This document shows positions 32,310 to 61,101 of a stretch of DNA of 64,000 nt, piece by piece (position 1 is the first letter of the stretch; every line of letters starts with the position of its first letter). Source of the stretch: an uncultured Actinomycetota bacterium (GTDB taxonomy: Bacteria; Actinomycetota; Aquicultoria; CAYFWW01). Under the pieces are notes generated by a model. The model did not search any database, was not told where the DNA came from, and saw nothing but the letters and a program-made list of their open reading frames with translations. Location: contig CAYFWW010000048.1 in assembly GCA_964346985.1 (NCBI GenBank), forward strand, positions 291-64,290, in the 5' to 3' direction. The position numbers were made by a program, and so were the translations under genes.

Positions 32310-34127
32310 TTGAAAGAGTTTTTTAATTTTACCCTGAGTAAAAAACTGGCCATAATTATAATTCTAATATTGTCCTTGATTATAGTAATTGGATCATACA
32401 TTCATATCCGTAGCATGCAAGATTCATTCATCAGGTTAAATACTCTTCATATTCAAAATAATGTTCATTTCTTTGAGGAAATAATTGAGGAAAGGGGTTT
32501 AGATAAAGAGTATCTTCAGCATAAGATTGTTGAAATTAATGATTTCCAAGAGTACCAGGAGATATTTATTGTCGATAATAATTTTCAAATAATTGCTCAT
32601 AGCAAACCTAATAAAGTTAACCAGTTTTATAAAAATCCAGATATTAAAAAGTCTATAAAAAAAGAAGAGATCGTTTATGCAATAGAAACTCATGAGGAAA
32701 AAGGAAAAAACATTAGGATGCTGGATTTTGCTTTTCCAATCCGTCGTTATGGGCAAATAATTGGGGCCGGCGAAGCTAGAATTAGCCTCAATTATCTCAA
32801 TAACGAAATTAACAGCTATGTTCGCGAAACAATCTTATATGTCTTGTTGTTTTTATTATTCTTTATTCCACTCTCTCGATATTACTATATCAGAGTATTT
32901 TCTTTACCCTTAAATTCATTAGTAACAGCAACAAAAAAGGTAGCTGAGGGTGATTTAGATTATAAGATGGAAAAATTGGCCGGCAAAGAGATTAACATGT
33001 TAGCTAAATCATTTAACGACATGACCTTAAAACTTCGAAAATCAAATGTTGATTTGAAACATAGAATTATTGAATTATCAACCCTGAATAAGATTAGCAC
33101 GGCCATTTCATCTACCCTAGATCTCGATAAAGTTTTAAACATGATTTTAGATGATGCTATTAAATTGACTAACGCTGAAAATGGCTCGATAATGCTCTAC
33201 GATAAAGAAAAAGATCTTCTTTCTATAGAGGTTGCCCGTGGTTTACCTCAGAATGTCATTGACAATTATTCAGTTAAAAGCGGAGAAGGAATAGCCGGTT
33301 GGGTTCTAAAAAACAAAAAACCATTGATACTTGAGAGTGGCCTCCAGAATGAGATCAATTTTAAGGGAGATAATTCAAATATTAAAGATGCTTTATCGGT
33401 TCCCCTACACGTCCAAAATAAAATAATTGGTGTTTTAAATATAAGCAATAAATATTCCGGTACATTTAATCAAGATGACCTATCTCTTCTGGCCACTCTA
33501 GCCAATCAAGCTTCTAACGCCATAGAAAATGCCAGATTATATGAAGAAATCGAAAACCTCTATTTAAGTACAATTTCCGCTCTTGCAGCGGCAGTTGAAG
33601 CGAAAGAGCCATATACTCATGGTCATTCTGAAAGAGTTTCCAGGCTGGCAACTCGCTTGGCTGAAGAAATTGGAATTGATGAAAATGAATTAAAAGGAAT
33701 CAAAACAGCCGGTCTGCTTCATGATATCGGAAAGATTGGAATTTCTGAAAAAATCCTTCTTAAACCTGGCAAACTCACTGCCAAAGAGTTTGGTGAGATG
33801 AAAAAACATCCGGAAATCGGACAAAAAATCCTAAAAGCTGTTGAATTTCCATGGGAAGTCACTAATCCTATCGCCCAGCATCATGAAAGAGTTGACGGAA
33901 AAGGATATCCTGCAGGCCTAAAATCTAAGAACATCTCACTTCAAGGAAAAATTATAACAATAGCAGATTCCTATGATGCCATGACTTCAGTACGCCCTTT
34001 TAGAAAAAAAGTGAAGACTAAAAAGGAGGCAATTAAAGAGTTAAACAGTTGTTCAGGATCTCAATTTGATAGTGAGCTAATTGAGGTATTTATCTTTTTA
34101 TTAGAAAATAAACTAATCAGTGCTTAA
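32310..34127 (+). CDS. Membrane-anchored HAMP-GAF-HD-GYP c-di-GMP phosphodiesterase
   Basis: TM helix, HAMP (VTATKKVAEGDLDY), GAF and HD-GYP (HGHSERV...HDIGKIGI...HHERVDGKGYP). TTG start after AAGGAGA. Confidence 0.8.
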   Translation: MKEFFNFTLSKKLAIIIILILSLIIVIGSYIHIRSMQDSFIRLNTLHIQNNVHFFEEIIEERGLDKEYLQHKIVEINDFQEYQEIFIVDNNFQIIAHSKPNKVNQFYKNPDIKKSIKKEEIVYAIETHEEKGKNIRMLDFAFPIRRYGQIIGAGEARISLNYLNNEINSYVRETILYVLLFLLFFIPLSRYYYIRVFSLPLNSLVTATKKVAEGDLDYKMEKLAGKEINMLAKSFNDMTLKLRKSNVDLKHRIIELSTLNKISTAISSTLDLDKVLNMILDDAIKLTNAENGSIMLYDKEKDLLSIEVARGLPQNVIDNYSVKSGEGIAGWVLKNKKPLILESGLQNEINFKGDNSNIKDALSVPLHVQNKIIGVLNISNKYSGTFNQDDLSLLATLANQASNAIENARLYEEIENLYLSTISALAAAVEAKEPYTHGHSERVSRLATRLAEEIGIDENELKGIKTAGLLHDIGKIGISEKILLKPGKLTAKEFGEMKKHPEIGQKILKAVEFPWEVTNPIAQHHERVDGKGYPAGLKSKNISLQGKIITIADSYDAMTSVRPFRKKVKTKKEAIKELNSCSGSQFDSELIEVFIFLLENKLISA

Positions 34128-46469: not shown

Positions 46470-47612
46470 TTAAGAAGAATCTGAAGTTAAAACTTCGATG
46501 AATTTCTCCCAGGATTTTTTTACGGAATTTATCTCAGAACAAGGATTTTTCACTGCTGTTTCTTTTGAAAAAAAGTCAATTATGCCACTGGCTAAAGCTT
46601 TTACATTTTTGGGGGGAATCAACCTATCGCCAGCTTCAAAGATAACTTCATCAGCTAAACCACCTACATTTGTTGTAATAACAGGAAGATTAAACTTATG
46701 AGCCTGTGGAATAATTCCGCTCTGAGACGCGGTTCGGTATGGTAAGACTATTACATCTGCTGCTCGAAAATAATAATATACCATTTCATTGGGTATATAC
46801 CTGTCTATTATTGTTACATTATTAGAAATATTTATTTCTTCTATCTGGCGAATGTATTTGTCAATGCTTTCATAAAACTCGCCAGCAATTAATAATCTTA
46901 GATTTGGAATTTTAGCTATAGCTGCCGGTAATGCATTTAATAAGTCAGATAAACCCTTGTATGCTCTTATATAACCAAAAAATAGAATTATCTTTTCGTC
47001 AACCGAAAGACCAATTTTTTGCCGGCATTCCTTTATACTGATTTCATTTTTTGCCATAAAGATTGTATAGACTGGGTGCCTAATTTTACATAATTTCGAG
47101 GCAGGTAATTCTTTGACAATTTTCTTGGCCACAAAACTCGACAGCGCTATTAAAATATCAGCTTGCCTGAGAGTTGGTTTTGTAAAGAAACTCCAGAACC
47201 AACCCATTTCATGTGATGAATAATTATGACAGATAAAAACCAATTTTTGAACATTTTTTCTTTTTAGTGAACGACAAATATAATATAGAGGTATCGATAA
47301 AAACGGGTGCCACCACTGAATAACAACAATTCTATATCCTTCCTTAATAATTTTTTTATATGTGCTCCGCCAAGTAAATGGATTAAAAGGGCTTAAGATT
47401 CTTTCTGTTTCAATCTTGAAATAGTTCTTGCTTAGATCATATTGAGTTTTTCCCGGGAAGAAAATTTTAGGATACAATATGCGGTAATTAAATATTTTAG
47501 CTTTTACATCTTTCTCCAGATTAAGAAAGTAGGATAAATGATTTGAAAAATGAGCAATTCCTCCACGATATGGATAAGCCGGGCCAATTACTGCAATCCT
47601 CTTTTTCATCAC
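46470..47612 (-). CDS. Glycosyltransferase family 4 (GT-B) protein
   Basis: C-terminal GT1/GT4 domain with EX7E-like region. Confidence 0.75.
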   Translation of the reverse strand: MMKKRIAVIGPAYPYRGGIAHFSNHLSYFLNLEKDVKAKIFNYRILYPKIFFPGKTQYDLSKNYFKIETERILSPFNPFTWRSTYKKIIKEGYRIVVIQWWHPFLSIPLYYICRSLKRKNVQKLVFICHNYSSHEMGWFWSFFTKPTLRQADILIALSSFVAKKIVKELPASKLCKIRHPVYTIFMAKNEISIKECRQKIGLSVDEKIILFFGYIRAYKGLSDLLNALPAAIAKIPNLRLLIAGEFYESIDKYIRQIEEINISNNVTIIDRYIPNEMVYYYFRAADVIVLPYRTASQSGIIPQAHKFNLPVITTNVGGLADEVIFEAGDRLIPPKNVKALASGIIDFFSKETAVKNPCSEINSVKKSWEKFIEVLTSDSS

Positions 47613-47706: not shown

Positions 47707-48885
47707 TTAGGTTCTTCTTTGTAACTTATCTCTTTGTGCTATATCTATAATTTGATTGTTTCTTCTTTCAACTAGTATATCTTTTGCTGTTTTTCCCTCG
47801 TTGACAGAACTTCGGCGATCAATTCTGTATACCTGTGAAAGCACATAATCTTGAGTTTGTTTATTGTCGCTTGTGGACCTTATTAATTCAGCAATCAGCC
47901 CAGTTAAAATAATTTGGAGGCCAGTTATTAGCAAAAGTACTCCCAGCATAAGCAATGGCCTATTTCCTATGCTTTGATTAAATAAAATTTTAGCTCCGGA
48001 TAAATAAAGCAAAACTGCCGACCCAATTGAAAACAAAGATATTCCAAATAAGCCAAAAAGATGTAAGGGTCGTCCATAATAACGAGAGATCATAACGACT
48101 GTAAATAAATCCATAAATCCTCTATAGAAACGATTATATCCATATTTAGAATGCCCGTGGACCCTAGGATGGTGCTTCACTGGAACCTCAGTAATAATAT
48201 AACCTTTGTAGGCTGCCAATACTGGGAAAAAACGATGCATCTCACCATAGCAATGTGGAATAAGGTTTCTTATCACATTCCACCGATATGCCTTTAGACC
48301 AGAGTTTATATCGTGCAAATTCACTCTGGATAATTTGCGCTCCATATAATTAAATACTTTAGAAGGAAATGTTTTAGAAACCGGATCTTGCCGCTCCTTT
48401 TTCCAACCAACGACCACATCATAACCTTCTTCAATCTTCTGAATCAGTTTAGGTATTTCAGCTGGCTCATCTTGAAGGTCTGCATCCATAGTGACAATGA
48501 TATTACCCGTTGCAAAAGTAAATCCGCTAGCAAAAGCTGACGCTTTTCCAAAGTTGCGTCTATGCCTTAAAAGTTTTACTTCCTCATCCTTAGAGGCTAT
48601 TTCAGTCAAAATCAACCAAGAATTATCTGTTGAACCATCATCAATAAAAATTATTTCTGCATTTAATCCTAATAGATTGATGGTATCCTTCATTTTTTTA
48701 TATAGCGGCCGAAGGTTCTCCGCCTCATTTAGAAGTGGGATAACTATCGATAAGTCTAGTGGTTTTTTCAAACCTTCTTCCTCTGGGTACTGTATTCTTA
48801 TGTTATTTAAGTGTGATTTCAAGAAGGACTCCTTGTTTTCTTTTATATTTTTCTCACCCATTATATTCGTCAGATATTGAATCAA
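47707..48885 (-). CDS. GT2 polyprenyl-phosphate hexose synthase (Dpm1/GtrB/ArnC-like) with C-terminal TM helices
   Basis: LSIVIPLLNEAENL...IFIDDGSTD...DADLQD GT-A motifs, followed by 2-3 TM helices. Confidence 0.8.
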   Translation of the reverse strand: MIQYLTNIMGEKNIKENKESFLKSHLNNIRIQYPEEEGLKKPLDLSIVIPLLNEAENLRPLYKKMKDTINLLGLNAEIIFIDDGSTDNSWLILTEIASKDEEVKLLRHRRNFGKASAFASGFTFATGNIIVTMDADLQDEPAEIPKLIQKIEEGYDVVVGWKKERQDPVSKTFPSKVFNYMERKLSRVNLHDINSGLKAYRWNVIRNLIPHCYGEMHRFFPVLAAYKGYIITEVPVKHHPRVHGHSKYGYNRFYRGFMDLFTVVMISRYYGRPLHLFGLFGISLFSIGSAVLLYLSGAKILFNQSIGNRPLLMLGVLLLITGLQIILTGLIAELIRSTSDNKQTQDYVLSQVYRIDRRSSVNEGKTAKDILVERRNNQIIDIAQRDKLQRRT

Positions 48886-49047: not shown

Positions 49048-50232
49048 ATGATGGAAGATATATCAAAAAAAACAAAAAAAATCAAGATTATATTCCTGGG
49101 ACGATATATAGTCTATATTTTATTGGCCCTTTTAATTTTATCTATCCCCCTTACCATTATCCTTAATGGTGGTGATAGCAATAAAAGAATGGGCTTAAAC
49201 ATCATAAATGAAATAAGAAAAAAAGTGAAACCCCGACCTATAGCCAAGAAAGTAGAACCTCTCGAAAATATGGTATATTTTGGTGTCTACCAAGAAGATG
49301 CTCCCTTTAAAATAAAAGACCTAGATGATTTTCAAAAGAAATCCGGAAAAGAAGTTTCCATCTTGATGTGGTATCAGCCATGGTCAGATTCTGGACGCAA
49401 TATCTTCGATCAAAAGGTTGTCGACTTCTTGATTAAAAAGGGTGTGACTCCGATGATTTCCTGGGAACCATGGGACCCAGGAAGTGATCCTAAAAAATTA
49501 AAGAATCCTGCCAGTCAACCTAAATACAGGCTTAAAAACATAATAAATGGTAATTTCGATTCCATAATTAAAACATGGGCAAGAGATATTAAAAGCTACG
49601 GGGGGCCAATAATGCTTAGGCCGCTTCATGAAATGAATGGGACTTGGTATCCATGGGGAGGGCCAGTAAACAGCAATCAGCCTGAAGAATTCATTGAAGC
49701 ATGGAGACACATCTATAATATTTTTAAAAAAGAGGGAGCAACAAATGTAACCTGGGTTTGGAGTGTAAATAACCAAAGCGTTCCTGCCGAGAAATGGCAT
49801 AAAATTTCTATTTATTATCCGGGGGACGAATATGTTGACTGGACTTCAATTAGTGGTTTTAATTGGGGAACGTCAAGTGAATGGAGCAAATGGAAAACAT
49901 TTAATGAAGGTTATATTGATATTATTAACGAACTTTCTAATATTAAAAAGCCTATTATTATCTCAGAAATAGGCTGTGTAGAAAATGGTGGGGATAAATC
50001 TAAATGGATAATTGAAGCATTCCAAAATATTAAAGAAAAATACCCAGGAATAAAAGGTATAATTTGGTATAACCGTAGAGATTCAAAAAATCAGGACTGG
50101 AGGTTTGATACTTCAACCGATAGTGCTATAGCTTTTCGTCAAGCAATCAGTGATCCATATTTCTCAAATCAGACTACCCCTGCCTTAAAAGACTTTCTTA
50201 GAAGATGGATAGGCACGTCTATCAAGAAATAA
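49048..50232 (+). CDS. GH26-like (clan GH-A, beta-mannanase-type) glycoside hydrolase, N-terminal membrane anchor
   Basis: RPLHEMNGTWYPWGG (acid/base region), WVWSVN, YYPGDEYVDW and IISEIGC (nucleophile region). Confidence 0.7.
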   Translation: MMEDISKKTKKIKIIFLGRYIVYILLALLILSIPLTIILNGGDSNKRMGLNIINEIRKKVKPRPIAKKVEPLENMVYFGVYQEDAPFKIKDLDDFQKKSGKEVSILMWYQPWSDSGRNIFDQKVVDFLIKKGVTPMISWEPWDPGSDPKKLKNPASQPKYRLKNIINGNFDSIIKTWARDIKSYGGPIMLRPLHEMNGTWYPWGGPVNSNQPEEFIEAWRHIYNIFKKEGATNVTWVWSVNNQSVPAEKWHKISIYYPGDEYVDWTSISGFNWGTSSEWSKWKTFNEGYIDIINELSNIKKPIIISEIGCVENGGDKSKWIIEAFQNIKEKYPGIKGIIWYNRRDSKNQDWRFDTSTDSAIAFRQAISDPYFSNQTTPALKDFLRRWIGTSIKK

Positions 50233-52368: not shown

Positions 52369-54297
52369 TTAGGCAAGCTGGTTTTTTTCAAAATCTAAGA
52401 GAATTTTTTCAATCTCCTGAGCAAATTCTTCCCAATTCAGTTTTTTAGCTTTAGAGTATGCCTTGTCTAACTCTTTCTTAGTTTTAGAATAATCACCAAT
52501 TAAATAATAAAATCTGCATAATTCAAGTTGAAAGGTTAAAGATAACTTAGGATCTTTAATTAAACCAATAATCATTTGAAAGCTGGAAATCGCTTCCTTA
52601 TATGAACCCATTTCAAATTGATCATAGGCTTTATGTATTAAGTCATTAATTATTTTGCTTGTATATTCCGACTCATCGATGAAAGTTGAAACTTTTTTTT
52701 CCAACTTATGAAAAGATACTTCTTTCTCTTCTTTCTCTTCAACCAGAGGGCGAAGATCCTCTCTAATTATCATTTGAATAACTTTATCTTTATCAGCCAC
52801 TTCTTCTTGAACAGTTGAAATTTGACTTGCTCCAGATAATCTAATAAATCCACTTAGCAGAACTATATGGACAATAGCAAAAGCTACATTGTTCATAATA
52901 GAAGGATTGGCCCCAAACCATAACATACCGAAAAATATAGCAATAATCATTAACAAAGTCATAAAGATTTGAGGATATATATGTGGAGTTATGCCTTTTA
53001 TATCAACTCCTTTAGGAGTAACAACAAAACCAAGTTTTCTACCAAAAATAATAGACAGCCAGGCCTTTATATGGACTGGGAACGAACAAAGCGAAAACCA
53101 TAAAGCTCTAAATGTCAGCGTGCCATTGGCCGCATATGCCAGGAAGACAATGTTTATAAAGAGATACGGGAAAAAATGCAACGGATACATATCAGCTTCT
53201 TTTATTGGTTTGATTCCAAAGAAAAGCATGAGTATAGGCATTATTGCATAAATCAAGTAAGCCCATCCTGTAAACCAGTATATTCCGCTTAGAAAATATT
53301 GAATCTTTTGAGGAATTGTTAGATTCTTCAATAATGTATTTTCCTTTATAAATATCTCTAAACCTCCCCGAGCCCATCTAAGCTGCTGGCTAAAATATGA
53401 ACCTACATCTTCTGGTCCTAGGCCTTCTGCCAAAACCTCTGGGTAATAGACTGATTTCCAGCCACGCTCGTGCAGTTTGATGGATAATAATAAATCTTCT
53501 GTAATGGATTCTTCTGGGAGATAACCTATCTGGCGCAGTGATTCGCGGCGAAATACAACATTAGTTCCACAACAAAAAGCTGCGCCTAGCTTATATTTTC
53601 CACGGCAAATTGGGCCATAAAATAACTCTTGTTGTTCAAATGCCCCAGCTGCAATTTTATTCTCCGACTTATTCTTATAAAATTGAGGTGTCTGAACAAA
53701 AGCAATTTTTTCATCTTTGAAAAAACCTAATGTTTTTAAAAGAAACCCAGGATAAGGTGCATGATCACAATCAAAAAAAACAACATAGTGCCCATCTGTC
53801 TGTTTAAGTGCATTATTAATATTTCCAGCCTTGGCTCCCTTACGATCAGGTCTTGAAAAGTATTTAACATGGTATCGAGAAGCTAGTTTTTTAATCATAT
53901 CTGAGGGGCCGTCATCAAGAATATATATCTCTTTATTTGGATGGATAATATTACTTACTGCCTTAATTGTATTTTCTACAATTTCAATAGGTTCATTATA
54001 AACAGGAATAAGAATATCAACCGGTTTAAACCAGATATCTTTGGAAATCTTCACCTGGTCTGGCCATTTCTGATTCAAAGCAGTATACCAAAATCCACTG
54101 ATCTGGATAAAATTAAATAACTCAGCTGAAATCAGTAATATATACAAAACAATATGATCAGGCCGTTTAGAATCCAACATCCAGCTGAAATAATATATGG
54201 CTGCAAAGATTCCAAGAATTGTAAAAACTTTCAAGGAACGTAGGTATCTACTTCTTTCACTTTCAATAGTAAAATTTCTATTTTCCATAAATCTCAT
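52369..54297 (-). CDS. Cellulose-synthase-like processive GT2 (BcsA/CesA-type D,D,D,QxxRW) lacking a PilZ domain, with a novel C-terminal module
   Basis: DDG, DCDH, TED and QQLRW motifs and multi-TM C-terminal half. No RxxxR/DxSxxG PilZ motifs. The C-terminal 86 aa resemble the C-terminus of the 57834..58646 protein. Confidence 0.8.
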   Translation of the reverse strand: MRFMENRNFTIESERSRYLRSLKVFTILGIFAAIYYFSWMLDSKRPDHIVLYILLISAELFNFIQISGFWYTALNQKWPDQVKISKDIWFKPVDILIPVYNEPIEIVENTIKAVSNIIHPNKEIYILDDGPSDMIKKLASRYHVKYFSRPDRKGAKAGNINNALKQTDGHYVVFFDCDHAPYPGFLLKTLGFFKDEKIAFVQTPQFYKNKSENKIAAGAFEQQELFYGPICRGKYKLGAAFCCGTNVVFRRESLRQIGYLPEESITEDLLLSIKLHERGWKSVYYPEVLAEGLGPEDVGSYFSQQLRWARGGLEIFIKENTLLKNLTIPQKIQYFLSGIYWFTGWAYLIYAIMPILMLFFGIKPIKEADMYPLHFFPYLFINIVFLAYAANGTLTFRALWFSLCSFPVHIKAWLSIIFGRKLGFVVTPKGVDIKGITPHIYPQIFMTLLMIIAIFFGMLWFGANPSIMNNVAFAIVHIVLLSGFIRLSGASQISTVQEEVADKDKVIQMIIREDLRPLVEEKEEKEVSFHKLEKKVSTFIDESEYTSKIINDLIHKAYDQFEMGSYKEAISSFQMIIGLIKDPKLSLTFQLELCRFYYLIGDYSKTKKELDKAYSKAKKLNWEEFAQEIEKILLDFEKNQLA

Positions 54298-55895
54298 TCA
54301 CTAAATAAATAAACATCAACATTTGGAAATTTTTTCTTAACTTCATTCGTATATTTATATCTTAAGATAGTCCTGCTTCTGAAAGCTGCCCTTTTCACAA
54401 AGCTTCTCTCTTCGAAGCTGGTAATCATCCAAACCCTTTTTTTGTTCTTGTAAGCCTTGTTTAAATCAAAGGATAGTTCATCCATGCTAGACCTTATTGA
54501 ATTATCGGCAGGCTCAACCCTTGGAAAAGCAATCGCTGGGACTTTACCCTTATAGTAATAAAGGAAAACGTTCTTTATATAATAAGGAACGTATATTACA
54601 GCATCATCCTTTTCAAGGTTTTTTTGAACATACGATATCGCTTTTTGGTTATCATAACGAATTCGATTATTGAGGCTAAAAGACTGGTCTGCCCAAAAAA
54701 TAATCGCGCTAATAGCTAAAATAATCATAAAAAGGCGATAATGATTTTTATCACTTATTGAAGAGATTATACAACCAAAGAATACATAGAGTGGAATAGT
54801 ATAGATAGCAATATATCTAACTATAAACATTTCACGATAAAGACCAATAATATACATTAATAAAAGAGGGACCACAATCCCAATAATAAGATAAAGATAT
54901 TTCAGGCCGGGTGGCCTAACAAAATAGACAAGGATAAATAAGATCAACATTAATAAAGGCCATAAGGAAACAAGGTTTGCAGTTATGTCATCGCTATGGA
55001 AACCAAATAGCGACTGGGTAAAAACCATAAGGATTACATTAAAATTATAGTTACTTCCACTGAGTAAATGTTCTTCTGCAATTCCGACTAAATGCCTTGA
55101 AACCAGGACAAACCTTACCCATGGAAGAAAAAGTATTAATATGGAAACCTGAGAACTTATCCAGATACCAGATGTTTTTAATCTTTCTTTCCAGGTTGAG
55201 TAACTTTTTTTATCCTCCTCAAGGTTCGCTTTATTCTGTATAGAGCGAATAAACCAAAAAATAAAGAAAATATTTTGAAAGACAATCATTAATACTCCGA
55301 AATAAGATGTAAATAACATTAAAGTTGTAAACAGAACATATAATAACCAATAAACCAATTTTGCTTTCTCGAAAAGCTTAAACCCAAAATAGAAAGCAAG
55401 TGTGGCCCAGATTAAGAGAATAATATACATCCTTGCATCCTGTGAATACCAAATAAAAAATGGGGAGAAGCTGAATAAAAAAGCTGTGGTGAAGCCTATT
55501 CTTTCATTGAATAATGACTTACAGACAAAATATACCACTAAAACTAAGATCAATCCAAAGAATAATGACATTGACCTAACAGCAAAAGGGCTCTTTCCAA
55601 AAAAACTCATCCAATAATGAAGAGAAAGATGAAAGAGTGGCGGGTGAACGCCGTGTGCCATTGTTGAAATAATGTCTCTTGGGCTCTGGCTTGCTTGTAT
55701 AATGCTTGTGCACTCATCTAACCAAAGGTCACGGGAGTTAATTCCTACCAACCTTAATACAAAAGAATTTATTAGAAGAAATATAACACCAGCAATCTCA
55801 ACTTTAGCCGAATATATTTTTCCAATAATATTTTTCAAATAAACACTTTTTCCTTTTTGAATGTTAATAATATTTTCTACCATAAGAGTCAACAA
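54294..55895 (-). CDS. GT-C fold glycosyltransferase (PMT/ArnT/GT39-GT83-like)
   Basis: More than 10 TM helices; DE motif (WLDEC) in the first extracytoplasmic loop; translationally coupled to the BcsA-like gene. Confidence 0.7.
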   Translation of the reverse strand: MLTLMVENIINIQKGKSVYLKNIIGKIYSAKVEIAGVIFLLINSFVLRLVGINSRDLWLDECTSIIQASQSPRDIISTMAHGVHPPLFHLSLHYWMSFFGKSPFAVRSMSLFFGLILVLVVYFVCKSLFNERIGFTTAFLFSFSPFFIWYSQDARMYIILLIWATLAFYFGFKLFEKAKLVYWLLYVLFTTLMLFTSYFGVLMIVFQNIFFIFWFIRSIQNKANLEEDKKSYSTWKERLKTSGIWISSQVSILILFLPWVRFVLVSRHLVGIAEEHLLSGSNYNFNVILMVFTQSLFGFHSDDITANLVSLWPLLMLILFILVYFVRPPGLKYLYLIIGIVVPLLLMYIIGLYREMFIVRYIAIYTIPLYVFFGCIISSISDKNHYRLFMIILAISAIIFWADQSFSLNNRIRYDNQKAISYVQKNLEKDDAVIYVPYYIKNVFLYYYKGKVPAIAFPRVEPADNSIRSSMDELSFDLNKAYKNKKRVWMITSFEERSFVKRAAFRSRTILRYKYTNEVKKKFPNVDVYLFSE

Positions 55896-56032
55896 ATATC
55901 AAAATTTATTAAACATGATTATAATCGGAATTTTAATATTTTTCCTAAATCCTCATTTCTTTATCTAAATAACCACAAATAATATTTTTTTTCCAAAAAA
56001 CTAAAGTTTTCTAGCCTATAACCGATACATAT

Positions 56033-56125
56033 AGTGGTTGGCAATCACCCGAAAGGGCAAACCCATCTAAAGGTGGGGACGCAAAACCAAGGATCCGAAT
56101 GGATAGCCTGGTTGCCGAAGGTGAG
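56033..56125 (+). ncRNA. c-di-GMP-I (GEMM) riboswitch
   Basis: Conserved GEMM-I blocks: GGGCAAACC, P2 hairpin CCCAUC-UAAA-GGUGGG, GGGACGCAAAACC junction, 3' GGUUGCCGAAGG (compare the GEMM block GGGUUACCGAAGG). GC-rich island in AT-rich DNA directly 5' of the GH26-like gene; its 3' end overlaps the SD (AAGGUG). Confidence 0.75.
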
Positions 56126-56129
56126 AGAG

Positions 56130-57692
56130 TTGAAAACAAATTATAAATTTAAAAAAATATTCTTAATCATAACCAGCTTCTTAATGTTACTTCTGTTTGC
56201 CAGTCCCGTCACAGCCCAGACAACATTACCTGAACCACTCAGAGGAAATACACTTATTGGTTATTTTGTTCCAGGATCCCCGGCAACAAATAACCTAATA
56301 GATTTAGAGACAAAAACCGATCGCAAGGCCGATATTGTTTTATACTATCAAGACTGGACATATGGTTTAATCAATCAGAATGTTCGAAATGTTTTGAATC
56401 ATGGCTCAATTCCACTGCTAACTTGGATACCATGCAAAGGCGGAGCTGGGACAAACCAACCTGATTATCGTTTAAAAAACATTACAAATGGTAAATTCGA
56501 CCAATATTTAAGAGAATCTGCTAGAGCTGCCAGAAACACTGGAGAGACAATCTGGTTAAGGCCTTTCCATGAGATGAACGGTAACTGGTCTTCGTATTCA
56601 GGTACAACCAACGGAAATAGTCCAGAAGATTTTATCCCAGCCTGGCGGCATATAGTTGATATCTTTAGACAAGAAGGAGCAGATAATGTTTTATTTGTCT
56701 GGTCTCCCAATACAAATTCAGTACCTGATACTCCCGAGAATGCCATTAGTGTATACTTCCCGGGTGATGACTATGTAGATATTATTGGAATCGATGGATA
56801 TAATTGGGGCACAAGCCAATCTTGGTCTCATTGGAACTCATTTTATGACACTTTTGTTAAATCGTATAAAACTTGCACTTCTCTAAGCAAAAAACCAATA
56901 ATCATTGCTGAAACAGGCTCGTCAGAAAAAGGTGGAGACAAAGCCGCATGGATTAAAGATACTTTTAACACAATATATAATGATTTTCCACGAATTAAAG
57001 GGCTAGTCTGGTTTAATATCAATAAAGAAACGGACTGGAGAATCGAATCTTCAATAGCTAGTCTAGAATCTTTCAAAAGTATAGTTGCAGAAAACGCAAA
57101 TAGTAAAAATATTATACAATTTGTAATGAAGTTCAACAAAAATACAAGCCAAGATAGAATTGAACAAATACTATATGATTACAACTTAACAGTTATATCC
57201 GGGCCTTCAAAAAATAACTACTACTATTTAGAGACTCAACCGGGAATAAACTTCAATAAACTTGTTTCAGCTCTCTCTGGACTTCCAGAAATTACCAGAA
57301 TAGACCGTAATTATTCTTATCGTGTAAATACAAGTACTGGGTTAGGAGCTGGAGAATCCATAAATAATATATTGGCGGCAAATGATAATTATAAGGGTGG
57401 AGCCAAAGCAGAATCTTCCTTCAGCCAAGCAGCCAACCAAACCTATAATACTTCCCCTATTTTGGAAGATTCTGCTTCACCTCTTTTGGCAAAAGAAAAT
57501 TTATTACAATCATCTTTTAAAATAGATTTTCCAAATAGTCTTTTCAGCAATAGTTTCGCTGTTAATATCTATAAAAAAACAGATAAAGAATCAAGTTACC
57601 TGCCTAATCTGAATCAATTTTCCGCTTTAATTATGCTCATTATAGTTTCCGGGACTTCAGTCCTACTTTATAAACAAAAAATAATGGCATAA
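56130..57692 (+). CDS. GH26-like glycoside hydrolase paralog with signal peptide and C-terminal extension
   Basis: RPFHEMNGNWSSYSG, FVWSPN, YFPGDDYVDIIGIDGYNWG and IIIAETGS motifs. Start set to TTG 56130 (RBS AAGGTG; signal peptide KTNYKFKKIFLIITSFLMLLLFASPVTAQ). The track ORF (from 56034) reads through the riboswitch. Confidence 0.7.
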   Translation: MKTNYKFKKIFLIITSFLMLLLFASPVTAQTTLPEPLRGNTLIGYFVPGSPATNNLIDLETKTDRKADIVLYYQDWTYGLINQNVRNVLNHGSIPLLTWIPCKGGAGTNQPDYRLKNITNGKFDQYLRESARAARNTGETIWLRPFHEMNGNWSSYSGTTNGNSPEDFIPAWRHIVDIFRQEGADNVLFVWSPNTNSVPDTPENAISVYFPGDDYVDIIGIDGYNWGTSQSWSHWNSFYDTFVKSYKTCTSLSKKPIIIAETGSSEKGGDKAAWIKDTFNTIYNDFPRIKGLVWFNINKETDWRIESSIASLESFKSIVAENANSKNIIQFVMKFNKNTSQDRIEQILYDYNLTVISGPSKNNYYYLETQPGINFNKLVSALSGLPEITRIDRNYSYRVNTSTGLGAGESINNILAANDNYKGGAKAESSFSQAANQTYNTSPILEDSASPLLAKENLLQSSFKIDFPNSLFSNSFAVNIYKKTDKESSYLPNLNQFSALIMLIIVSGTSVLLYKQKIMA

Positions 57693-57833: not shown

Positions 57834-58646
57834 ATGGGTCAGATATTAGCAATTGCAATTGCTTTGATTTTCATTTTTGGGTTACTATTACATTTGGTAT
57901 TACGCTTTATATTTAGGATAAATGCTTTAAGAGTTCTGCTGGCAGCTACTATTTCTTCTGTAATCATTCTATTAGTTGTTGTCTTTGTACACCAAAGATT
58001 TAGTTTAAGCAATACAGAACTTTTAATTTTAATATTTCCATTGGCAATTGTTGCTTCTTTTATAATTGCCTGGGCTGAGCAAAGATTTTTAAAGATTTCA
58101 CAAGTTACTCGTGAAATAACACCAACATCCCCAAATATAAAAACTGTACCTTCCGAAATTAAAGATGATATTTCCGAAACTCTAAAAAAAGAGGTTTCAC
58201 CTATTAATAAAACGAAACCGGAACCTCAACCCGTAGCTCCTACACCTATTAAGGAACCTGTTAAAGAAGAAGCCTTGCCTCCAAAAGAAAAGGAAATATA
58301 CCGAGATTTAGTCAAAGAAGAAAAAAAAGAGGTATTCTCAGAAGAATATAGAGGAAAACCTGATGAAGCCTTAGATGTCCTTATTGAGGATGCTTATTCT
58401 CATGTAGATTCTGGAGCAATTGACTCAGCAATTCAATCCTTTCGTTTAGCAATTGTCTTCGCTGAAGACCCAGAAGTGCTAATTCCTTTACAAGTTGAAT
58501 TGGGCAGGCTCTGGTTTATGATCGGTGAAACCAGTAAAGCAGCAAATGAGCTAAAAAAAGCATATGATCTTGCTAAACAAGTTGGATTACAAGATAAAAT
58601 AAGTGAAATCGGTTCTCTTCTAGAAAGCCTTTCTGAAGAGGAGTGA
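57834..58646 (+). CDS. Membrane protein (3 TM) with Lys/Glu/Pro-rich linker and a C-terminal about 80-aa module shared with the BcsA-like GT
   Basis: C-terminal AYSHVDSGAIDSAIQSFRLAIVFAEDPEVLIPLQVELGRLWFMIGETSKAANELKKAYDLAKQ aligns without gaps to the BcsA-like C-terminus (AYDQFEMGSYKEAISSFQMIIGLIKDPKLSLTFQLELCRFYYLIGDYSKTKKELDKAYSKAKK). Confidence 0.55.
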   Translation: MGQILAIAIALIFIFGLLLHLVLRFIFRINALRVLLAATISSVIILLVVVFVHQRFSLSNTELLILIFPLAIVASFIIAWAEQRFLKISQVTREITPTSPNIKTVPSEIKDDISETLKKEVSPINKTKPEPQPVAPTPIKEPVKEEALPPKEKEIYRDLVKEEKKEVFSEEYRGKPDEALDVLIEDAYSHVDSGAIDSAIQSFRLAIVFAEDPEVLIPLQVELGRLWFMIGETSKAANELKKAYDLAKQVGLQDKISEIGSLLESLSEEE

Positions 58647-61029: not shown

Positions 61030-61101
61030 AGCGGATGACGGGAATCGAACCCGCAACGACCAGCTTGGGAAGCTGGCATTCTACCATTGAATTACATCCG
61101 C
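61030..61101 (-). tRNA. tRNA-Gly (anticodon CCC)
   Basis: Reverse complement GCGGATGTAATTCAATGGTAGAATGCCAGCTTCCCAAGCTGGTCGTTGCGGGTTCGATTCCCGTCATCCGCT. Confidence 0.85.

Follow-up and report, generated by a model that had tools for sequence, protein, structure and literature searches.

The closest described systems to the RNA element considered here are the class-I riboswitches for cyclic di-GMP (c-di-GMP), also called GEMM-I. The element lies in a 64-kb stretch of contig CAYFWW010000048.1 (the window, by which is meant the whole of the DNA analysed; positions are counted from its first nucleotide), directly upstream of a gene for a glycoside hydrolase of family 26 (GH26). Residues G20, A47 and C92 are the contact residues of these riboswitches and an interhelical Watson-Crick pair, C44-G83 in the Vc2 riboswitch of Vibrio cholerae, is universally conserved (PMC4744006). 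G20 contacts the G-alpha base of c-di-GMP, C92 pairs with the G-beta base, and a change of G20 to A characterises the GEMM-Ib riboswitches, which sense 3',3'-cyclic GMP-AMP (cGAMP) (PMC6140456). A preprint contains a description of the Vc2 GEMM-I riboswitch as an off-switch (bioRxiv 10.1101/617340). The element in the window resembles Vc2 (Rfam family RF01051) in its three-helix architecture, in its GGCAAAC and GACGCAAA blocks, in the interhelical C-G pair, in the three contact residues, in the helix P1 that closes the junction and in its position in a 5' leader. It differs in having a compact helix P1b, without the extended arm of the RF01051 consensus (CUAAgg...cuAuG), and a P1a loop of UAAA and not GNRA. 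It also differs in that the Shine-Dalgarno (SD) sequence is part of the outer P1 helix, on its 3' strand, so that the aptamer itself doubles as the expression platform and no separate platform sequence exists. With family RF03167 (c-di-GMP-I-GGC) it shares the compact P1b and an explicitly modelled P1 ending in ...GCcgaag, whereas that variant has G after GACGC, a position occupied by A in the window and in every related leader. The GEMM-Ib riboswitches of the Geobacter Gs1761 type have the same overall fold and belong to the same clan but carry A at the G20 position (PMC6140456), where the window has G.

The element (Table 1) is almost certainly a class-I c-di-GMP aptamer. Taken as a whole, it is probably a translational OFF riboswitch in the leader of a secreted GH26 beta-glucanase, with the SD held within P1, the direction of control being read from the anatomy. 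It is a further example of a well-known RNA class, an ordinary c-di-GMP riboswitch and not a new kind. When the whole window was searched with Rfam 15 cmscan at gathering thresholds, one riboswitch match and four tRNAs were returned. The riboswitch match (56047-56120, forward strand, clan CL00126) covers all 80 model positions with an E value of 2.7e-13 and a score of 65.7 bits, where the gathering score is 59; a second family of the same clan was also above its own threshold. A covariance model built for this study (R1) gave 88.8 bits on the aptamer core at 56050-56117. The element is GC-rich (54% G+C) in AT-rich DNA (36% for the window), as had been noted when it was first picked out from the letters alone, and the GEMM-I blocks quoted then are all present: GGGCAAACC at 56055-56063, GGGACGCAAAACC at 56076-56088 and GGUUGCCGAAGG at 56110-56121, together with a 6-bp hairpin (CCCAUC/GGUGGG, loop UAAA) at 56062-56077. 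The range given in that original prediction, 56033-56132, corresponds to the functional element with 12 nt of 5' flank and extends to the TTG start codon. It had anticipated a significant hit to RF01051. The clan match is significant, but the top family is RF03167 and not RF01051, the latter being assigned to the leader of the orthologous locus L002 (61.5 bits, gathering score 35). The GEMM-I call itself stands on the Rfam matches in the window and its relatives, on covariation and on the alignment of the ligand site.

The three-helix junction that had been proposed, here described as P1, P1a and P1b, is borne out by comparison of related leaders. A core alignment of five leaders (the window, the orthologous loci L001 and L002, and L020 and L022), of which four are effectively independent, contained 20 pairs; 96% of its cells are paired and 8 of the 20 pairs have changed on both sides, including three of the six pairs of the P1a stem and five of the ten of P1b. 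In 500 column shuffles the observed values were reached by none on four of the five measures and by 25 of the 500 for further pair types, and when the register was slid by 1-3 columns pairing dropped to 24-42%. This covariation supports the Rfam assignment and, with so small a sample, is no independent proof of it. In its native register P1 consists of the pairs C56050-G56117 and G56051-C56116, a bulge of two A residues (56118-19) and then five outer pairs. The wider occurrence of such an outer helix was surveyed by motif extraction in 68 non-redundant aptamers, made up of seven GH26-associated or related leaders and metagenome hits. An outer helix of at least 5 bp adjoining the core is present in 49% of them, as against 15% of shuffled controls, and the common geometry is that of the window, with two unpaired nucleotides on the 3' strand and none on the 5' strand.

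The one conserved feature of P1a from which the window departs is its loop. The compared leaders have GNRA loops (GAGA in L001, GAAA in L002, GCGA in L003, L020 and L022) and the window, with UAAA, is the sole non-GNRA copy, a single-base deviation. In our judgement this does not decide membership of the GEMM-I family. It could be taken to mean that the aptamer of this strain is decaying or weakened and acts as a constitutive structured leader, the UAAA loop being confined to the window while L001 has GAGA. However, all other conserved positions and helices are intact, the changed base is still followed by its three adenines, and the Rfam score is only 3.6 bits below that of L001 (69.3 bits), all of which makes decay improbable.

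The RF03167 label raises the question of ligand specificity. The c-di-GMP-I-GGC variant is said to have been defined by Weinberg et al. in PNAS in 2017, the letters 'GGC' reportedly denoting the nucleotides at Vc2 positions 20, 47 and 92. The two Rfam consensus sequences differ at the A47 position, RF01051 having GACGC-A-AAgCc and RF03167 GACGC-G-AAgCc. The window reads GACGC-A-AAACC, so that A56083 mismatches the RF03167 consensus, and A is likewise found at this position in L001, L003, L020 and L022, all of which are labelled RF03167 (62-69 bits). L002 and L004 (79.1 bits) are labelled RF01051, and L002, when aligned to RF01051, lacks the distal arm of P1b. The RF03167 label can be attributed to model architecture and clan competition, because the G of the variant is A here and RF03167 models a short P1b and also scores the P1 pairs. 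Judged by its predicted binding-site nucleotides, which form the canonical GAC, the element is not a GGC variant and the label reflects model architecture only. There is an annotation pitfall in this, since clan competition labels a compact GEMM-I element with a canonical site as a 'GGC variant' and so carries a risk of unfounded claims of altered specificity.

The same G/A/C triplet was found in 48 of the 68 surveyed aptamers, with A/A/C in 7 and G/G/C in none, and the equivalents of the interhelical pair, C56080 (GA-C-GC; C44) and G56106 (A-G-CC; G83), are invariant in all five aligned leaders. As the G/A/C site is canonical, c-di-GMP is the predicted ligand. The determinant of cGAMP recognition, A at the G20 position, is absent from the window, where G56056 is found. 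The original prediction had also drawn attention to GCAAAACC in place of the usual GCAAAGCC as a possible signal of ligand selectivity. This suggestion does not survive the alignment. The base concerned, A56086, forms the second base pair of P1b with U56112, and this pair (columns 38/66) is A-U in three of the five leaders, G-C in two and unpaired in none. On this alignment GCAAAACC is a compensatory base-pair change and not a junction or ligand-site difference, and it therefore provides no basis for cGAMP selectivity. A specificity variant, sensing 3',3'-cGAMP or an unknown ligand of the 'GGC' class, would agree with RF03167 being the top family and with a P1a loop and compact P1b that are unlike the Vc2 archetype. 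It is contradicted by the A at 56083 and in every relative so labelled, by the absence of the A at G20 that determines cGAMP sensing (PMC6140456), by the compensated pair at GCAAAACC and by the assignment of the orthologue L002 to the canonical RF01051, and we consider it very unlikely.

Departures from the canonical site were seen in other aptamers of the survey. In the leader L022 663 (from the Coriobacteriia metagenome-assembled genome contig JBBRSD010000012.1; aptamer 593-668) the position aligned with C92 is U (…GGCC-GU-CGAAGG), giving a G/A/U triplet; because C92 pairs with the G-beta base of the ligand, this aptamer could be a natural specificity or affinity variant. The seven metagenome aptamers with A at the G20 position, as in the cGAMP type, include L123 846-929, L146 1224-1309, L134 2064-2151 and L120 1038-1230. 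Several of these A-at-G20 aptamers have a second aptamer, whose triplet is the canonical G/A/C, 80-170 nt away in a tandem array, and such A/A/C plus G/A/C pairs may be mixed-specificity tandem riboswitches.

The position of the SD provides the main indication of how the aptamer might act. The aptamer, its outer P1 included, ends 5 nt upstream of the TTG at 56130 and is on the same strand as the GH26 gene. AAGGUGA is also found directly 3' of the aptamer in L001, L002, L003 and L022, and genes of the window commonly have SDs of the AAGGAG or GGAGG type. UCACC pairs with GGUGA in both the minimum free energy (MFE) and the centroid folds; for a leader that begins at 56043 the models have GGUGA 87-99% paired, and a 5' complement to GGUG has been kept through differing sequences (UCACC, CACC, ACC and CAC). 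That the 3' strand of the aptamer contains the SD of the downstream gene had been recognised at the outset, and the anatomy is indeed one of translational gating without a terminator. No terminator-like site was found between the aptamer and the start codon, only 12 nt separating the aptamer core from the TTG, and transcription termination was rejected as a mechanism on these grounds. Control is very likely to be translational.

The direction of control had been left unstated, and the anatomy predicts repression by c-di-GMP. The ligand would bind the three-helix junction directly above P1, contacting G56056, A56083 and C56115, and because its site lies immediately above P1 it would stabilise this helix and hide the SD. 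With SD and start codon occluded, 30S binding would be blocked. The 5' strand AUCACC of P1 is identical to part of the anti-SD tail of 16S rRNA, and owing to this match P1 would compete directly with the ribosome for the SD. At high c-di-GMP the synthesis of GH26 would thus be OFF and at low c-di-GMP it could proceed, a physiological logic by which a hydrolase of matrix or glucan would be produced only when c-di-GMP is low. On the anatomy, OFF is the probable polarity. If validated, the merged aptamer and SD of about 80 nt would constitute a compact natural c-di-GMP-responsive translational switch, of use as a reporter or engineering part.

A genuine c-di-GMP aptamer could also have the opposite polarity or act at another level, with the ligand activating translation or bearing on mRNA stability or processing. 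GEMM-I riboswitches of both polarities exist, Vc1 activating the expression of gbpA (PMC4744006). Activation at high c-di-GMP would be sensible if the hydrolase were needed alongside the synthase, in the manner of the endoglucanases that partner cellulose synthases, and with its 5' flank the unliganded RNA folds differently, so that more than two states are possible. Against this, only the 5' strand of P1 is strongly complementary to the SD within the leader, and P1 is the helix stabilised by the ligand; the leader yielded no other helix that would sequester the SD and be dissolved by the aptamer fold, and it has neither a terminator nor a long platform. Activation or control at another level is consequently regarded as rather unlikely.

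The 5' flank segment 56038-46 may serve as an anti-P1 strand, keeping the SD open in the absence of ligand. In the MFE fold of a transcript modelled from 56035 or about 56005, UUGGCAAUC forms a nine-pair helix with GGUUGCCGA in which the aptamer is destroyed; with the flank thus included GGUGA is 43-93% unpaired, both Gs being 93% unpaired. The helix is kept in L001. It would matter only if transcription starts upstream of about 56040, and according to the fold models it is a plausible anti-sequestor. Hairpins overlapping the 5' strand of P1 are also predicted in L003, L020 and L022; GC-rich flanks fold readily, and the evidence from these is weak. For the role of anti-P1 element a small hairpin, GUGGUU/AAUCAC (56034-48), was also weighed and set aside, since it is absent from the MFE folds and unconserved in L002; the longer helix 56038-46/56110-18 was retained as candidate.

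The 5' flank also contains the block CCGATACATATAGTGGTTGGC, which is identical at 21 of 21 positions in the window, L001 and L002 (254-274 in L002), while the remainder of the intergenic region has diverged and the L002 protein is 52% identical to that of the window. A scan for consensus promoters did not report the block. It may nevertheless be a promoter, which would place the start of the RNA at about P1. The conservation of CCGATACATATAGTGGTTGGC exceeds the need of a bare -10 element, and the block may combine a promoter with an operator or belong to the expression platform.

The translation start lies in the same few nucleotides. The TTG at 56130 begins a typical signal peptide, LKTNYKFKKIFLIITSFLMLLLFASPVTAQ, and in L003 and L022 an AUG stands 6-7 nt after AAGGUGA and is followed directly by the signal peptide. 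In L002 (354-362) the codon at the position of the TTG is TCG, and the sole canonical in-frame start is the GUG within GGUGA. Either the window and the L002 orthologue initiate differently, or both truly start at the GUG that they share; the two candidates are in or adjoin the 3' strand of P1. The mechanically called open reading frame runs from 56034 to 57692. Its frame is open from 56022, and the near-identical protein P0001 (L001 330-1988) has been called automatically as 552 amino acids from the upstream GTG. These calls would make the stretch coding, the N-terminus of a 552-residue protein from GTG 56034. In L002, however, the open frame does not begin before 309 and the start was called downstream of the aptamer; the SD of L003 and of L022 is directly followed by start codon and signal peptide, and the signal peptide of the window begins at the TTG; the region also fits an RNA covariance model and shows compensatory changes. 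There is thus hardly any chance that the region is protein-coding. The start at GTG 56034 is wrong because it translates the aptamer, as a spurious N-terminal extension of 32 residues, and 520 residues is the correct length. P0001 illustrates this second annotation pitfall, a gene caller translating an aptamer.

Several points weigh against the explanation as a translational OFF riboswitch. Ligand binding and gene control are deduced from sequence and fold models, and the comparative set is small, with six independent GH26-associated leaders. In the models P1 is already closed without ligand when the transcript starts at 56043 and is opened when the 5' flank is included, so that the dynamic range is not predictable, and L002 has kept only part of the candidate anti-P1 helix. 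The assignment of SD and start differs across orthologues, L002 having TCG for TTG and only the GUG inside GGUGA. Lastly, a UAAA loop instead of GNRA may weaken tertiary docking and ligand affinity.

The regulated gene encodes a protein that matches Pfam family PF02156 (55.2 bits, cut-off 20.2, E value 9.4e-15) and has a signal peptide, in agreement with the secreted GH26-like hydrolase that had been predicted. Its closest match in the PDB is the GH26 domain of Clostridium thermocellum Endoglucanase H (2bv9; E value 1.5e-55 over residues 42-319), and all other GH26 entries, named mannanases included, gave 5e-13 or weaker. The Endoglucanase H domain (2bv9, 2bvd, 2cip) is presumably CtLic26A, a beta-1,3-1,4-glucanase (lichenase). 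The two proteins are alike in the catalytic domain and in both glutamate motifs; the catalytic glutamates of the window protein, E148 (HEMNG) and E261 (IAETG), align with the motifs of 2bv9 and are invariant in an alignment of 20 sequences. By these similarities the regulated enzyme is probably a beta-glucanase rather than a mannanase. The window protein differs in having an additional C-terminal region of about 200 residues and a terminal hydrophobic anchor, and is probably secreted and membrane-anchored. The approximately 200 residues after the catalytic domain matched no Pfam or NCBIfam family. The C-terminus (57400-57692) ends in a hydrophobic segment followed by KQK (…FSALIMLIIVSGTSVLLYKQKIMA), which resembles a membrane or cell-surface anchor, with no obvious LPXTG-like sorting motif.

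The pairing of GEMM-I with GH26 is not restricted to the window. In L001, whose GH26 protein is 98% identical, and in L002 the gene order GH26, 270-residue membrane protein, PRC-barrel protein is kept and the aptamer is likewise placed. When 80 GH26 loci from species-representative genomes were scanned with R1, aptamers were found in four, in each case only upstream of the GH26 gene: L003 and L022 (Coriobacteriia), L004 (Actinomycetes) and L020 (Arthrobacter agilis). Their leaders score 62-79 bits in Rfam, and the aptamer-bearing loci include the two most similar to the query among the 80. P0003 and P0005 (L083-L085), the GH26 homologues next in similarity, are not preceded by an aptamer, and a search of metagenomes for the P1b core brought up 70 further aptamers, with a GH26 gene downstream of none of them. 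In a scan of genome contigs based on the GH26 alignment no close relative of the window lineage came up, and the best match was 47% identical. GEMM-I with GH26 is therefore an arrangement that recurs among Actinomycetota without being universal, and the organism of the window is not alone in having it. It adds GH26 beta-glucanases to the classes of gene regulated by riboswitches and points to the use of c-di-GMP riboswitches in poorly studied, deep-branching Actinomycetota. It leaves the understanding of riboswitches or c-di-GMP signalling unchanged, and its value is mainly for annotation.

Table 1. Positions of the riboswitch, its predicted parts, the regulated gene and neighbouring genes in the window.
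Feature	Position	Strand	Basis or remarks
c-di-GMP-I (GEMM-I) aptamer, complete with outer P1 helix	56045-56124	+	Rfam match, covariance model, centroid fold with P1, P1a and P1b
P1, 5' strand	56045-56051	+	outer UCACC 56045-49 with GGUGA 56120-24; inner CG 56050-51 with CG 56116-17; folds and Rfam structure lines
Helix P1a	56057-56082	+	GC/GC lower pairs 56057-58 with 56081-82; 6-bp stem 56062-67 with 56072-77; loop UAAA 56068-71; C56080
Helix P1b, compact, without extended tetraloop-receptor arm	56085-56113	+	includes A56086-U56112 and G56106
G20 equivalent, predicted to contact G-alpha base of c-di-GMP	56056	+	conserved G just before GC of P1a, both Rfam models
A47 equivalent, predicted ligand contact; separates RF01051 (A) from RF03167 (G)	56083	+	Rfam consensus comparison; blank in match line
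C92 equivalent, predicted Watson-Crick pair with G-beta base of c-di-GMP	56115	+	Rfam structure lines; C in 63 of 68 aptamers
Shine-Dalgarno sequence AAGGUGA	56118-56124	+	GGUGA is 3' strand of outer P1
Start codon TTG, most likely	56130-56132	+	5 nt after GGUGA; signal peptide starts there; alternative in-frame GTG 56121-56123 in SD/P1 strand
Candidate anti-P1 (anti-sequestor) strand UUGGCAAUC	56038-56046	+	can pair with GGUUGCCGA 56110-56118
5' flank block CCGATACATATAGTGGTTGGC, 21 nt	56022-56042	+	-10-like TATAGT at 56030-56035; candidate promoter or leader 5' end
GH26 glycoside hydrolase, 520 residues	56130-57692	+	signal peptide; catalytic domain about residues 42-319; C-terminal region; terminal hydrophobic anchor
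GT4	46470-47612		glycosyltransferase island
GT2	47707-48885		glycosyltransferase island
Second GH26	49048-50232	+	38% identical over 328 residues to regulated GH26, E value 1e-76
KaiC-like ATPase			glycosyltransferase island
Cellulose-synthase-like (BcsA-like) GT2	52369-54297	-	NCBIfam CelA/BcsA profile positions 60-568 of 714
PMT_2/GT-C protein	54294-55895		divergent from riboswitch gene

The regulated gene stands, as had been described, in an island rich in glycosyltransferases, with GT4, two GT2 and PMT_2/GT-C neighbours. No riboswitch was found by Rfam or model R1 before the second GH26 gene, 6 kb upstream, and therefore only one of the two paralogues would be under c-di-GMP RNA control. 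No PilZ domain was detected by Pfam or NCBIfam in the cellulose-synthase-like GT2. It can be imagined that in this low-GC, deep-branching lineage c-di-GMP control of a PilZ-less, cellulose-synthase-like exopolysaccharide system has moved from the synthase to a riboswitch-gated partner beta-glucanase, and that compact GEMM-I elements with the SD in P1 form a subgroup dedicated to GH26, an output device conserved across several classes of Actinomycetota; this is offered as a speculation with a small chance of being correct. The C-terminal 77 or so residues of the same GT2 are 38% identical (E value 3e-16) to the C-terminus of the 270-residue membrane protein encoded at 57834-58646 (forward strand), just downstream of the riboswitch-controlled GH26 gene, and this shared part is an unannotated cytoplasmic domain.

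A gene at 32310-34127 encodes a HAMP-GAF-HD-GYP protein in which the HD, HHE and GYP motifs are intact, and therefore c-di-GMP turnover exists in the organism. The original prediction had taken this protein and the riboswitch together as placing second-messenger control directly on the hydrolase. The protein is real and the turnover stands; a dedicated circuit is an overstatement, as the gene is 22 kb from the riboswitch, with the housekeeping genes for ClpB, DnaK and DnaJ between them.

The DnaK of the window is 79-82% identical to the DnaK of metagenome-assembled genomes labelled Actinobacteria or Actinomycetota and 73-76% identical to that of Candidatus Aquicultor, Geothermincolia and Subteraquimicrobiales. 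These identities point to a deep-branching and unusually AT-rich actinobacterium. The four tRNA genes (1-72, 221-292, 571-643 and, on the reverse strand, 61030-61101) have 54-67% G+C as against 36% for the window, a contrast that could reflect growth at high temperature and would fit with the Geothermincolia- and Aquicultor-like relatives of DnaK.

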